A stretch of DNA of 64,000 nucleotides from a virus (IMGVR_UViG_3300035498_002028), one strand, 5' to 3'; shown: positions 59,178 through 63,219, numbered from the stretch's first letter. Notes: generated by a model from the letters alone, not told the origin. Program-made: numbers and translations.

Positions 59178-59771
59178 TTACTCTCCGATATATTTTTTGA
59201 ATGCCGCATACGTATTGAATCTTTCTTTCCAGGTAGATTGCAACTCAATAGGATTAAGATTTAATTTCTGACATACATAAGTAATATACTCACTATCATA
59301 TAATTTCCTTCTTCTTCTATTAAGTTTCTTTACTTCTGCAAATACTTCATCTTTTGAAATACCATATTCTTTTAATAAAAATGCAACCATATCCGGCTGA
59401 GAGTATTCATGGAATTGGCAAATCGGACATACACATTCTGGTACATCATAGTATCCACCCTCAGAACAGAACTTTTCAAATAGGGTATCCTTATTCATCT
59501 CTTTAAGCTCTTCTTCTGAATAATCTCTTGATGTATGTGCCTTTGAATCCCATACATCTTTATTCCATTTATTTTCAAGAATCATCTGAATCAATTCTTT
59601 TTTATTCGGGTAATCTAATACTTCATCAGTGCAAAACACATGACCATTCACACACGCCATCATATCTGCATCACTAAGACCCAAATCAAATCCCGATTCT
59701 TGCCTACCACATATTTCACAAACGTAACTGGAACTTGAACTATTGGTCACAAAATCTTTCCTATATTTCAT
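59178..59771 (-). CDS. Paralogue family member 1 (conserved N-terminal MKYRKDFVTNSSSSSY; Cys-rich variable C-terminus)
   Basis: Shares a 17-aa N-terminus with five neighbouring genes; the rest is divergent (CEICG...C..GHVFC...C.CPIC). Confidence 0.6.
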   Translation of the reverse strand: MKYRKDFVTNSSSSSYVCEICGRQESGFDLGLSDADMMACVNGHVFCTDEVLDYPNKKELIQMILENKWNKDVWDSKAHTSRDYSEEELKEMNKDTLFEKFCSEGGYYDVPECVCPICQFHEYSQPDMVAFLLKEYGISKDEVFAEVKKLNRRRRKLYDSEYITYVCQKLNLNPIELQSTWKERFNTYAAFKKYIGE

Positions 59772-59779
59772 TTTCTCAC

Positions 59780-60217
59780 CTAATCCTCTTCCAAAATAAC
59801 AACATTATCATTACCAGCCGCCATATTCCTTAGAATATCTGCATATATTTCATCGTCATTGTCTACATTTTTAAATACAATACCAAATCCATTATTGATA
59901 TATTTAAGCATATTTTGATACATTTCGTACATACCCTCATCCTCATGCGAAAATATATCATCTATGGTTTTATCTTCACAATAACCATATCTGTCAATAA
60001 ATTCCGATTCAAACTCATCTATGTCTTTGACAATCGTTCCTCTACTTGTATCGGAATAATCTCCTTTTGCAAATAAAACATTTTCAACCAATCCAGAATA
60101 GTCTTTCAGCCACGGATATTTTTTTAATGTCTCTTCGTCTAATTCCGGCATTTTACGAAAGGCAATAATGAAACTGCTACTACTGCTATTCGTAACAAAA
60201 TCTTTTCTAATTTTCAT
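59780..60217 (-). CDS. Paralogue family member 2 (MKIRKDFVTNSSSSSFI...)
   Basis: Conserved N-terminal motif; unique C-terminus. Confidence 0.6.
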   Translation of the reverse strand: MKIRKDFVTNSSSSSFIIAFRKMPELDEETLKKYPWLKDYSGLVENVLFAKGDYSDTSRGTIVKDIDEFESEFIDRYGYCEDKTIDDIFSHEDEGMYEMYQNMLKYINNGFGIVFKNVDNDDEIYADILRNMAAGNDNVVILEED

Positions 60218-60230
60218 AGCTTATCTCCTG

Positions 60231-60473
60231 TCACTTTTGCCCGCGATATAATACAGTTGACTGTTGCTTTTTACTGGTTTTAATTTCAAATGAATTATCT
60301 TCCCTATTGAAATCAATGCATTCATCCCAAATTAAACCATAAATGGATTTTTCATTAACATATGTAATAGTGCCAATAGCAACCCCATTTTTCTTAATTG
60401 GCATATTTACATCGTCTGAGGTTAATCCAAATGTGTTATCACAAACCACTGATAGTCCTCTTGTTTTTGCCAT
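60231..60473 (-). CDS. hypothetical protein
   Basis: 80-aa ORF inside the paralogue cluster; lacks the family N-terminus. Confidence 0.4.
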   Translation of the reverse strand: MAKTRGLSVVCDNTFGLTSDDVNMPIKKNGVAIGTITYVNEKSIYGLIWDECIDFNREDNSFEIKTSKKQQSTVLYRGQK

Positions 60474-60482
60474 TATTTCCTC

Positions 60483-60974
60483 CTAACCAATATTCCAGCA
60501 CAAGACACAATATTTTCCAAAGTTTTCCTCAATAAAGCCATTTCTGATAGCCCATTGAAGCACACCACCATTGTTATCCCAAACCATTCCATGAACCACA
60601 AACTCTGCGTTCAATATTTCTTCGACTTTCTTTGGATAATCAGTTTCATTTAATTTGGCTTCCAGCTCAGTGATAAACTCTTCTGTCTTTTCTATTTCAA
60701 TGCATTTCTTATAATAATCTGGTTCATCTCTTGAAACATATTTATCCATTATGTCATCAATGATTTCGGCTGCATAATAACTATGCAGCCAGGATAAGCA
60801 GGTATCTTTGTCAGTATTGCCATCATAGATAAGATTTTTTACTAAATGAAAAAATTCTTTATATTCAAAATCATCACAATATTCTGTAAAACTTTTAAGC
60901 TCTTCCTCATTTTCAAATGTTAAAATGAAACTACTAGAACTACTATTCGTCACAAAGTCCTGTCTTATTTTCAT
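60483..60974 (-). CDS. Paralogue family member 3 (MKIRQDFVTNSSSSSFI...)
   Basis: Conserved N-terminal motif. Confidence 0.6.
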   Translation of the reverse strand: MKIRQDFVTNSSSSSFILTFENEEELKSFTEYCDDFEYKEFFHLVKNLIYDGNTDKDTCLSWLHSYYAAEIIDDIMDKYVSRDEPDYYKKCIEIEKTEEFITELEAKLNETDYPKKVEEILNAEFVVHGMVWDNNGGVLQWAIRNGFIEENFGKYCVLCWNIG

Positions 60975-60979
60975 ACCTT

Positions 60980-61862
60980 TTACCTTAAATCAACTTTTTC
61001 TTCGTATACCCTTACGGTTACAACCCTTGAATTCCAATCATCTTCACAATATGATATATCACCCATTTGCTTAGCCTTAGAATTAAGAGATGATAAATCA
61101 ACAATAAATTCTGTCATGCATCCATTCGCAACTGTGATTATATTTGAAGAATCGGTATGACAATCAGCCTTTTGGTCAGCCATAATACAAGGTATAACTG
61201 TGCCATTCTCCAAAATCAAATCAAAATACTGTCCAACTATAGCATTGAAATGACTTCCTAGTGCAACACAATATCTTCCATTATATTGACGAATTCCGTA
61301 TTGACCTGTGCCACATTTTTGTTGCAATTTATATTGATTGCTTTTACTCGAAAAAACATTATAAGGCATGTAACTCTTAAAGCCGCTTGTCATTGGAGCA
61401 TCATAATCAGTGTATGATAACTCGCTATCATTCAAATAATCTGCTTTGACATAGCCATCAATGTTTTCAATTTTAGCCCAACCATTATCCATAATGGCAG
61501 CACTTATTTTTTCATTAAAACAAAGTCTGTCAATGATATCTGCATCGCTATTAGGTTCTTGTCTGATATTTAATCTTGTAGCACATACCCAATAGTTATC
61601 ATATTTCAATTGCTCTTTCTCTATTGCTTCTTTTTCTTCATATAATGTTACTTGTTTTGACAAATCACAATCAATTATAGTTGATGTCATTTCAAATATT
61701 TCTTTGCTTATTCCCGCAACGGCTGTTACTGTTTCTGTTGAATCCTGTTCACTAATATTCTCTATCTGTTCGTCATTTCCATATGTCTGCCCCCCGCCGG
61801 GGGGCGACCACAGAAATGAACGCAAGAGAACATAGTCCAAGAATGAAAAGGTTTTTTCTCAT
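60980..61862 (-). CDS. Secreted SH3b-domain protein whose signal peptide is out of frame across a C6-GCC-G6 palindrome (61797-61812)
   Basis: From ATG 61862: MRKNLFILGLCSLAFISVVAPRRGADIWK-stop in one frame. The main ORF (MDYVLLRSFLWSPPGGGQTYGND...) is +1 from 61840. It has an SH3b-like segment (WVCATRLNIRQEPNSDADIIDRL...GWAKI). A 1-nt change in either homopolymer run fuses the signal peptide to the body. Confidence 0.5.
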
Positions 61863-61891
61863 TACGTTCCTCCATATTGTTCCTTTCTAAA

Positions 61892-62284
61892 TCATCCGAT
61901 TTTTATATGCTCATTGGCAAAAGAACAACCAAAGTTATACATAATAGATTCAAAAAGACCACTGCTTTCATTCCCAAATTCCTGCGCATGTGCAGACCAT
62001 CCATCCAGTTCTACGCTCGCTTCACCGGAAAAATAATATAAACAATCGGCAATCTCTTCAACCGCTAAATCAACTGCTTTCTGTTTATTTCCGGACTGAT
62101 ACTGATTCTTTATATCTTCGTTTTCTGGATATATGTGTTTTATGTTAGCAGAGAGAAATTCATCTATTTTATCCCTCTGATTGTTCACACTTTGTTTTAC
62201 TTCATCAAACGTGCAATCCTTGTGTCGTGCAATGATAAAGCTACTGCTACTTGAATTAGTTACAAAATCTGTACGAATTTTCAT
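61892..62284 (-). CDS. Paralogue family member 4 (MKIRTDFVTNSSSSSFI...)
   Basis: Conserved N-terminal motif. Confidence 0.6.
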   Translation of the reverse strand: MKIRTDFVTNSSSSSFIIARHKDCTFDEVKQSVNNQRDKIDEFLSANIKHIYPENEDIKNQYQSGNKQKAVDLAVEEIADCLYYFSGEASVELDGWSAHAQEFGNESSGLFESIMYNFGCSFANEHIKIG

Positions 62285-62299
62285 ATGTACGCTCCTTTT

Positions 62300-62806
62300 C
62301 TAATGGTGCGAAAATCTTTTAGCCGTACAATCAAGGCTTGGCAATATTTCATGTTCTAATACGCCATCTTCCCCATCTCCACCATCGCCATGCTCAACCT
62401 GTACTATTACCTTATTATCTCCTATAATTGACATAACTTTGTCAATTTGCTCTTGATAAGCTCTTTCAAGAACTTTCTTTCCCTCATCCGTATTAAAATA
62501 ATCCGATACTTCTTCTCTGGACATATGCTCTCTTCTTTTAAGCCGCTCTTCTATCTCCCATCTAATATGCCAACTTTCGTCCAATATAATTTCGACCAAA
62601 TCCTCTTTGGTTAGCCTATCTGCATTCTCAATATCATTTAATAATTGATGAAGATATCCAAATTCTCCGGCAGACCAACCATTTTCTATATCTGTAGGGA
62701 ACTGCTCTTTAAGAGTTTTATATATGCTATCTTCATCTTTGAATGAAAGAATAAATGAAGAACTGCTGCTATTGGTTACAAAATCGCTCCTTATTTTCAT
62801 AATCAA
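62300..62806 (-). CDS. Paralogue family member 5 (MIMKIRSDFVTNSSSSSFI...)
   Basis: Conserved N-terminal motif; acidic C-terminus. Confidence 0.6.
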   Translation of the reverse strand: MIMKIRSDFVTNSSSSSFILSFKDEDSIYKTLKEQFPTDIENGWSAGEFGYLHQLLNDIENADRLTKEDLVEIILDESWHIRWEIEERLKRREHMSREEVSDYFNTDEGKKVLERAYQEQIDKVMSIIGDNKVIVQVEHGDGGDGEDGVLEHEILPSLDCTAKRFSHH

Positions 62807-62841
62807 TCCTCCAAACCATTTATCAAATCCTCTAATTCATC

Positions 62842-63219
62842 TTATTCCTGGAAACCAACACCATTTCTTATATCCTCAAGATGTTTCAACCATTCTTCTT
62901 TTTCTTCGTTGTTCTGTATTGGTTTTTCGTTGTCATCTGGCAAATTAAAAGGGTATTCTCCCCATGACACAAACGCTGGTTTAATACCAATCTTACAAAA
63001 GAACTCATGCATCGAAAAATTGTCCATCCATGTATATCCTGTGATAAATGAATTGTTTTCACTGATATCCCATGTTTCATCATAACAATATAGATTCATT
63101 CTTTTTGCAAGTTCTCCATGTTCGCGTATAGCTTCTATTTGGTCATTTGTTAAAATATTTTTAGAAATCAAAAAACTTGACGATGAACTATTTGTTACAA
63201 AATCACTTCTAAATTTCAT
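62842..63219 (-). CDS. Paralogue family member 6 (MKFRSDFVTNSSSSSFL...)
   Basis: Conserved N-terminal motif. Confidence 0.6.
   Translation of the reverse strand: MKFRSDFVTNSSSSSFLISKNILTNDQIEAIREHGELAKRMNLYCYDETWDISENNSFITGYTWMDNFSMHEFFCKIGIKPAFVSWGEYPFNLPDDNEKPIQNNEEKEEWLKHLEDIRNGVGFQE

Follow-up and report, generated by a model that had tools for sequence, protein, structure and literature searches.

Several families of RiPPs (peptides that are made on the ribosome and modified after translation) share a leader in front of hypervariable cores that are all served by one enzyme. They include the prochlorosins (ProcA, with the enzyme ProcM), the families with NHLP and Nif11 leaders, and SCIFF, whose maturase is a radical S-adenosylmethionine (radical-SAM) enzyme with a SPASM domain. 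A PqqD-like RiPP recognition element (RRE), a leader peptidase and an exporter are common but not universal in such systems. SPASM enzymes oxidise Ser to formylglycine, epimerise residues and form C-C, C-S or C-O cross-links, and the three-Cys motif that binds the radical-SAM [4Fe-4S] cluster is canonically CX3CX2C. Whole proteins are matured by radical-SAM/SPASM enzymes too, namely by the anaerobic sulfatase-maturating enzyme (anSME), which converts Ser or Cys to formylglycine, and by QhpD, which acts on QhpC. In phage T4 the capsid-targeting sequence is an N-terminal peptide of about 10 amino acids with a prohead-protease site (hydrophobic-x-x-Glu, followed by cleavage). Here we describe an N-terminal tag carried by six genes in a 64-kb stretch of viral DNA, IMGVR_UViG_3300035498_002028 (one strand, referred to below as the window, which maps exactly onto contig L001), together with the radical-SAM/SPASM enzyme encoded beside them. 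The reading that we prefer, at a probability of roughly 55%, is that this enzyme docks on the tag and modifies it, much as maturases do with a leader.

The tag and its partner enzyme

Six minus-strand open reading frames (ORFs) at 59178-63219, termed m1 to m6 (Table 1), all begin with MK[IYF]R[KQTS]DFVTNSSSSS[FY][VIL], a near-invariant tag of about 18 residues at the N-terminus of each protein. The first-pass annotation of the window had reported these six paralogues, their complete divergence behind the shared start, and the insertion of an SH3 protein and an 80-amino-acid (aa) ORF among them; all six ORFs and both inserted genes are present, and the divergence is borne out at the sequence level (see below). 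Alignment of the six proteins gives 12 invariant columns, all inside residues 2-15. A degenerate DNA pattern for DFVTNSSSSS has 6 matches in the window against 0.00 expected (100 dinucleotide-preserving shuffles), and a six-frame scan of the 64 kb found no NSSSS outside the six genes. The five Ser positions are written with AGT, AGC, TCA, TCT, TCC and TCG codons in different copies, and the regions upstream of the six genes do not align with one another. The tag is thus ruled out as a DNA repeat, a recombination site or a product of recent gene conversion. Because the Ser codons differ between copies, selection has acted at the protein level, and the conservation of the tag is the result of old purifying selection on the peptide.

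The family reaches far beyond this window. A profile built from the six paralogues matched 7,116 representative clusters (50% identity) among 1.84 billion at E <= 1e-3; members are nearly all 90-250 aa long, and of the 150 best matches 138 begin at residue 1. Within IMG/VR, the pattern DFVTNSSS occurs in 358 stretches, and the 75 loci that were fetched lie on contigs of mostly 20-500 kb with 1-8 tagged genes each, usually in tandem. A second variant, MKIRxGFVSNSSSSSF, is at least as common there (at least 599 stretches) and includes an array of 13 genes on a 461-kb contig, so that tandem arrays in large phages range from 2 to 13 copies. In a set holding one genome per species the tag was found in 405 stretches, mostly from Lachnospiraceae, Oscillospiraceae and other gut or rumen Clostridia; isolate carriers include Dorea sp. 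5-2, Butyrivibrio sp. XPD2006, Lachnospiraceae bacterium NK4A144, Schaedlerella arabinosiphila DSM 106076, Flavonifractor sp. An92 and Lacrimispora amygdalina. Bacterial loci hold a single copy in 55 of the 73 where the scan found a tagged gene, typically a conserved protein of 120-127 aa. The tag also heads large proteins: four BspA-type leucine-rich repeat (LRR) proteins of 458-715 aa, one TIR protein of 743 aa whose C-terminal part holds a membrane segment, and one PQQ-like propeller of 919 aa. Among 50,697 records of cultured phages, searches by blastn with the array and by tblastn with m1 and an m6-type consensus returned nothing usable, and the low-complexity filter may hide the Ser run. 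Five of the six paralogues match the first 23-35 positions of the PHROG profile phrog_7397 (no function annotated), at E values of 1.8e-4 to 2e-2; the match is limited to the tag, the remaining 140 or so of the profile's 170 positions being unmatched. Since it is the start of this profile that matches, the tag is already present, unnoticed, in phage protein catalogues. No description of the motif string or of phage SPASM systems was found in the searched literature, and no record describing the tag family or its pairing with the enzyme exists in Pfam, NCBIfam, PADLOC or that literature.

The constant companion of the tag is a gene for a radical-SAM/SPASM enzyme. Full-length homologues of this enzyme (45-75% identity) were present in the fetched flanks of 64 of the 75 viral and 71 of the 80 bacterial loci found through the tag. 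Unbiased clustering of 4,371 same-strand ORFs from 250 loci recovered the tag family in 244 loci and the enzyme in 200 (65/75, 71/80, 49/79 and 15/16 by locus set); the next family reached 32 and was confined to one set. No third family common to phage and bacterial loci emerged from the 250 loci, the enzyme being the only such neighbour, and for this reason the system is regarded as having two components, without protease, exporter or recognition protein. The two genes lie a median of 380 bp apart (<=1 kb in 139 of 193 loci), and 99.7% of cases show them co-oriented. Either gene may come first, and the stop codon of one often overlaps the start codon of the next; in bacteria the usual order is one 124-aa tagged protein directly before the enzyme. 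The reverse test, in which loci were found through the enzyme alone, gave tagged genes at 3 of 3 independent places, adjoining in two of them (L166, L170) and, at the remaining one (L167), some 2.4 kb downstream.

This linkage persists across wholly different flanks and hosts, among them Lachnospiraceae, Oscillospiraceae, Erysipelotrichaceae, Selenomonadaceae and Synergistaceae. The flanks of the bacterial cassettes are mutually unrelated and not obviously prophage: in Dorea the cassette sits between histidine-kinase and ABC-transporter genes, and in Butyrivibrio sp. XPD2006 (L123, 688-8765) between a MamI restriction enzyme and methylase, a Schlafen-group-3 helicase and a PIF1-like helicase. 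The Butyrivibrio setting resembles a defence island. An XRE-like helix-turn-helix gene is found nearby in 17 of the 80 bacterial loci.

These distributions bear on the proposal of the first-pass annotation that the tag is a capsid-targeting or injection signal, cut by the prohead protease as in the T4 internal proteins IPI, IPII and IPIII. The two cases do share a short N-terminal tag on otherwise unrelated, variable small proteins in a variable phage locus, and the first residues of the tag are predicted to be flexible. However, the tag contains no conserved acidic or Glu-type site for a prohead protease, the array is set among replication and nucleotide-metabolism genes, and the tag is identical in phages that otherwise share little. 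Moreover, tag and enzyme occur together in bacterial chromosomes with no phage genes in the examined flanks, LRR and TIR proteins as long as 450-900 aa begin with the tag, part of it forms a strand of the fold behind it, and its constant partner is an Fe-S enzyme rather than a head or protease gene. The analogy with T4 is not supported on these points, and a capsid-targeting role is highly improbable.

The same annotation had allowed that the tag might instead be a shared protease, secretion or degradation signal. This was closer in spirit, as the tag resembles an enzyme-recognition signal. A tag that directs secretion, membrane insertion or proteolysis, with any modification serving as a licensing step, would account for its position at the very start of most matches, for its standing where the BspA-type LRR proteins, typically found at the cell surface, would have a signal peptide, and for its presence on the TIR protein with a membrane segment. 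Yet no transporter, peptidase or sortase-like gene co-occurs in the clustering of 250 loci, the tag is without a hydrophobic core, and the phage paralogues are small, acidic, cytoplasmic-looking domains, all of which makes a role in export or turnover improbable.

The enzyme is 361 aa long in the contig of the window (about 360 aa is typical). Its SPASM domain scores above curated cut-offs (Pfam, 29.2 against 21.5 bits; TIGR04085, 30.4 against 27), and Cys252, 272, 290, 328, 331, 337, 341 and 350 are conserved at >=97% in 117 homologues. The three Cys of the N-terminal cluster loop are kept in 154 of 160 unique sequences. Since the SPASM domain, with its seven to eight conserved Cys, lies above cut-offs and the three-Cys motif is kept, the protein is most likely an active but divergent radical-SAM/SPASM enzyme. 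It aligns weakly over its full length with NirJ2, PqqE and MftC-type maturases. NCBIfam holds no specific equivalog, the best models being generic SPASM maturases (30-38 bits against cut-offs >250); a sequence search of the PDB gave no match, and PADLOC yielded no family, with a weak generic radical-SAM match to pVip (E = 1.5e-3). At 90% identity more than 5,054 clusters make up the family, labelled at source only as 'SPASM domain-containing protein' or 'radical SAM protein with 4Fe4S-binding SPASM domain'.

A more distant relative is found in T4-like Straboviridae (Pseudotevenvirus and relatives), where 171 cultured phages of Klebsiella, Enterobacter, Cronobacter and Escherichia carry a homologue that is about 30% identical across 94% of the length and bears no annotation beyond 'radical SAM' or 'SPASM domain'. 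It belongs to a separate clade from the array-linked enzyme. At the one locus examined, in Escherichia phage UPEC03 (L251; MW250785.1, 144684-145838), the homologue has CX7CX2C spacing and no tagged gene lies within 7 kb of it. With a homologue of this low identity and no tagged neighbours at that locus, cultured T4-like phages were set aside as a model.

Enzyme and tag also vary together. Clustering of the enzymes at >=42% identity gives two main clades, which are 25-34% identical to each other. Clade 0 (167 loci) accompanies the tags RxDFVTN (406 genes), RxGFVTN (42) and RxDYVTN (29), and never ..VSN; clade 1 (28 loci) accompanies RxGFVSN (129 genes) and minor ..VSN variants, and never ..VTN. 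Such an exact match between tag variant and enzyme clade is what direct recognition would predict, and we take it as supportive but inconclusive.

Domains behind the tag and a proposed role

Behind the tag the proteins are heterogeneous. When members from 78 loci were trimmed of the tag, BLAST separated them into about 25 clusters, six of which each contain one of the window genes. Profile-profile comparison of twelve trimmed subfamilies linked m2 with the bacterial type of about 124 aa (94%, hhalign) and, marginally, m5 with m3 (31%); other pairs stayed below 10%. None of the six proteins has a meaningful family match in Pfam, NCBIfam or PADLOC, and against the PADLOC-DB 2.0 defence models the tagged proteins gave matches at chance level only. 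A Pfam match of m4 to CDT1 (24.4 bits) covers a short helical stretch and is considered spurious, and a match of m2 to Cas8b (E = 1.3e-3) is taken as chance. Individual subfamilies are nonetheless well populated. Homologues of m1 (28-70% identity) occur in the 75 viral loci, nearly always within an array; m3 has 14 full-length relatives (37-73% identity) that keep both the tag and its C-terminal block; the m5 cluster counts 37 unique members in 51 loci with an invariant C-terminal HH (ending ..SHH); and m6 has 67 relatives. In phages related through m6 (L159, L162; 10340-15481), a set of genes for NAD salvage and synthesis, encoding an isochorismatase-type nicotinamidase, a NAMPT/NAPRTase, a nucleotidyltransferase and an NAD synthase, lies directly downstream of the tag arrays.

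Structure prediction with AlphaFold gave two different architectures. In the model of m3 (predicted local distance difference test, pLDDT, 87), three strands are combined with six or more helices, residues 13-20 forming a strand, and the model matched nothing in the PDB or among viral folds; that of m6 (pLDDT 79) is a beta-alpha-beta-beta-alpha-beta sandwich. In both, residues 1-10/11 have pLDDT <50, which is no proof of a free or disordered tail, and the domains behind are confident. The distal part of the tag, SSSSF[IL][IL], is predicted as strand beta-1 of the folded domain in both models. The tag is therefore not fully detachable from what follows, which goes halfway to refuting the first-pass reading by that annotation's own yardstick: the first 10 or so residues are unplaced in the models, but the distal segment belongs to the fold. 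As the C-termini are unrelated by clustering and profile comparison and the two models differ in architecture, the tag is a genuine short module on heterogeneous domains, with its distal third built into the fold; the original description of a short conserved tag on otherwise unrelated C-termini has held up, and the subfamilies and the LRR, TIR and propeller fusions extend it.

Several unrelated subfamilies fix their last residues as well (..SHH, ..NHMG, ..WNIG, ..DLSY; in the window, FSHH in m5, WNIG in m3 and IKIG in m4). Among 567 unique members the terminal residue is enriched over background 8.9-fold for His, 3.1-fold for Gly and 2.7-fold for Tyr. The C-terminus may adjoin the tag or take part in the reaction, possibly as a second functional site. 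Fixed termini that hint at a meeting of both ends in the fold, together with the shared strand beta-1, could also be read as signs that the tag is simply the opening strand or hairpin of a single, highly divergent fold, or its oligomerisation arm, with the enzyme functionally unrelated or no more than co-regulated. A common core was not found by profile comparison, however, and the two models do not share an architecture; the same tag heads multidomain proteins of 700-900 aa, and neither the five invariant Ser nor the exclusive linkage and covariation with the enzyme is accounted for. We consider a purely structural tag distinctly improbable.

We propose instead a two-component system in which the six genes are the clients and the enzyme, at the head of the minus-strand gene string, is the other part. 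The sequence MKxRx[DG]F[VI][TS]NSSSSSF would act in a leader-like manner: its first 10 or so residues may be a free tail that docks into the enzyme, the Ser run and possibly Asn10 would be the likely site of radical chemistry, and the hydrophobic end (F-I/L-I/L) would enter the first beta-strand of whichever domain comes next. If one enzyme matures many unrelated proteins in this way, the tag would be frozen whilst the C-terminal domains diversify and multiply. Such an arrangement would explain why 18 residues stay frozen in thousands of proteins that vary freely behind them, why clients stand in tandem by a single gene for the enzyme, and why a change of tag variant goes with a change of enzyme clade.

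The comparison with described systems is instructive in both directions. As in the RiPP families, one enzyme is found with many tandem genes for putative substrates that adjoin it on the same strand, and these share a near-identical, presumed N-terminal recognition sequence ahead of a variable rest; the enzyme is of the SPASM class, like the SCIFF-type maturases. Unlike RiPPs, the presumed substrates are folded proteins of 90-900 aa rather than peptides, and the conserved part is just some 18 residues at the extreme N-terminus, which probably holds the modified residues itself. An RRE or PqqD domain, a leader protease and an exporter are lacking, the Cys spacing is non-canonical in most of clade 0, and the expansion is in phage genomes. 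With anSME and QhpD the system would share a SPASM-type enzyme, a brief motif close to where a protein of full size begins, and Ser as a potential target. It differs in that the clients are many unrelated domains rather than a single enzyme family; the tag lacks the anSME motif (C/S)-x-(P/A)-x-R, and no anSME model is among the NCBIfam matches of the enzyme.

The same linkage and covariation would fit an adaptor, in which the tag docks without being a substrate. The small proteins would then be exchangeable subunits that confer specificity or regulation, either by recruiting third-party targets (host proteins, for instance) to the enzyme or by switching it on and off. The C-terminal domains do resemble binding modules (LRR, beta-propeller, small alpha/beta), and phages hold many different tagged proteins beside a single enzyme. 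On the other hand, an invariant run of five Ser would be odd in a strand that serves docking only and is seen more typically where residues react, and the bacterial order of a 124-aa protein followed by the enzyme is the classic order of precursor and maturase. An adaptor role is on these grounds rather unlikely.

A number of points weigh against the tag as a docking and modification site. Nearly all loci were collected via the tag (three exceptions) and near-duplicates are frequent among them; independent events are therefore fewer than the counts suggest. In about 20% of loci, mainly those with the variant MKIKxDFVTNSSS[AST], the fetched flanks contain no enzyme. The loci are phylogenetically structured, and the covariation could reflect shared descent. 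The enzyme itself falls under the Pfam Radical_SAM cut-off (16.7 against 29.5 bits), and its cluster loop is unusually spaced in clade 0, to which the enzyme of this window belongs, with CX7CX6C in 113 of 134 sequences and CX5CX3C in this phage; clade 1 enzymes show the canonical CX3CX2C or CXnCX2C. Searches of the enzyme against Pfam and NCBIfam and the clustering of neighbours at 250 loci revealed no PqqD-like recognition domain, leader protease or exporter. Finally, the low pLDDT of the first residues leaves room for an N-terminus that is no free tail.

The setting of the proteins hints at what they may do once matured. Polymorphism, variation in copy number, the placement among early and replication genes, and the fusions to LRR and TIR domains are the reasons for which a role in host take-over or conflict is inferred for phages. 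A fuller picture, which we hold tentatively and judge somewhat short of an even chance, would be that of an undescribed protein-level modification. In it, a dedicated enzyme would apply radical chemistry (cross-linking, oxidation or epimerisation) to the Asn-Ser5 segment of a universal 18-residue tag on thousands of unrelated proteins of gut and rumen Clostridia and large phages, and phage batteries of up to 13 such proteins would need this maturation in order to act on the host.

Neighbouring genes and other features of the window

The minus-strand gene order is enzyme, YopX, m6, m5, m4, SH3, m3, orf80, m2, m1 (Table 1). The enzyme gene runs past the end of the window, and its full protein was read at L001 3127-4212. 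A promoter and terminator scan of 58400-64000 gave no excess over shuffled expectation.

Table 1. Coordinates of the array genes, their neighbours and further features of the window
Feature	Position	Strand	Description
m1 (tagged)	59178-59771	minus	197 aa; CxxC pairs right behind the tag and again near residue 115
m2 (tagged)	59780-60217	minus	145 aa, acidic; BLAST cluster C1
orf80	60231-60473	minus	80 aa; untagged, inside the array; not conserved elsewhere
m3 (tagged)	60483-60974	minus	163 aa; subfamily with a second conserved block, C-terminal, ..WDsnGGllEWAIRNGF..WNiG
SH3_3-domain protein	60980-61840	minus	286 aa; untagged, inside the array; Pfam SH3_3, 34.4 bits against a cut-off of 27
m4 (tagged)	61892-62284	minus	130 aa; BLAST cluster C7
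m5 (tagged)	62300-62800	minus	166 aa from ATG; acidic subfamily; BLAST cluster C2
m6 (tagged)	62842-63219	minus	125 aa; commonest small subfamily, signature ..MDNF.M..F...IG...
YopX-family gene	63209-63718	minus	169 aa; Pfam YopX, E = 9.4e-15; overlaps the enzyme gene and m6
Radical-SAM/SPASM enzyme, 3' end	63690-64000	minus	last 102 aa, including the SPASM CX2CX5CX3C block
744-aa protein	54844-57078	minus	large conserved phage protein; end-to-end match to phrog_33734 (no function annotated), E = 5.9e-98
tRNA-Lys(ttt), tRNA-Trp(cca), tRNA-Gln(ttg)	within 57531-58431	minus	between the 744-aa gene and the RNase H gene
tmRNA, predicted	58035-58431	minus	phage-encoded; tag peptide ANTELKAVA
Transposase-like gene	51029-52627	minus	532 aa; phrog_506, E = 1.1e-39
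Lowest-GC part	50001-54000		GC 0.28-0.31

The untagged genes within and around the array are not conserved parts of the system. Among the first 162 loci, homologues of the SH3_3 protein are confined to L001-L003 and are not kept in other arrays, and those of the YopX gene are found in L001 and L002 only. Neither these two nor orf80, the RNase H gene, the reverse transcriptase gene or the gene of 288 aa is conserved with the array, and all were dismissed as partners. The reverse transcriptase lies upstream of the enzyme at L001 231-2260, past window position 64000. This stretch encodes a 124-aa helical protein resembling an Avd-type accessory protein as well as the reverse transcriptase (RVT_1), which has 478 aa and a fused YAcAr/SLOG-like domain. 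The pair may be a diversity-generating retroelement or another reverse-transcriptase system, and homologues of the reverse transcriptase occur in just 6 of the first 162 loci.

Elsewhere in the window, further tRNA genes are those for tRNA-Leu(taa) at 48917-48999 and tRNA-Phe at 25821-25894 (plus strand). The transposase-like gene possibly marks an insertion element in the phage genome.

Biological significance

If the tag is a substrate, it and the enzyme would rank among the largest unrecognised pairs of radical-SAM enzyme and client, with more than 7,000 clusters at 50% identity on one side and more than 5,000 at 90% on the other. The leader-and-core logic of RiPPs would then, if the reading is true, be extended to whole folded proteins, and the tag could become a portable handle for enzyme-directed protein modification. 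Tag family and enzyme are abundant in human and animal gut Clostridia and in their large phages, although neither is named specifically in Pfam, NCBIfam, PHROGs or the searched literature. The pairing offers a practical way into one portion of the phage 'dark matter', since a single enzyme can be co-expressed with whichever client is chosen and cultured carriers exist.

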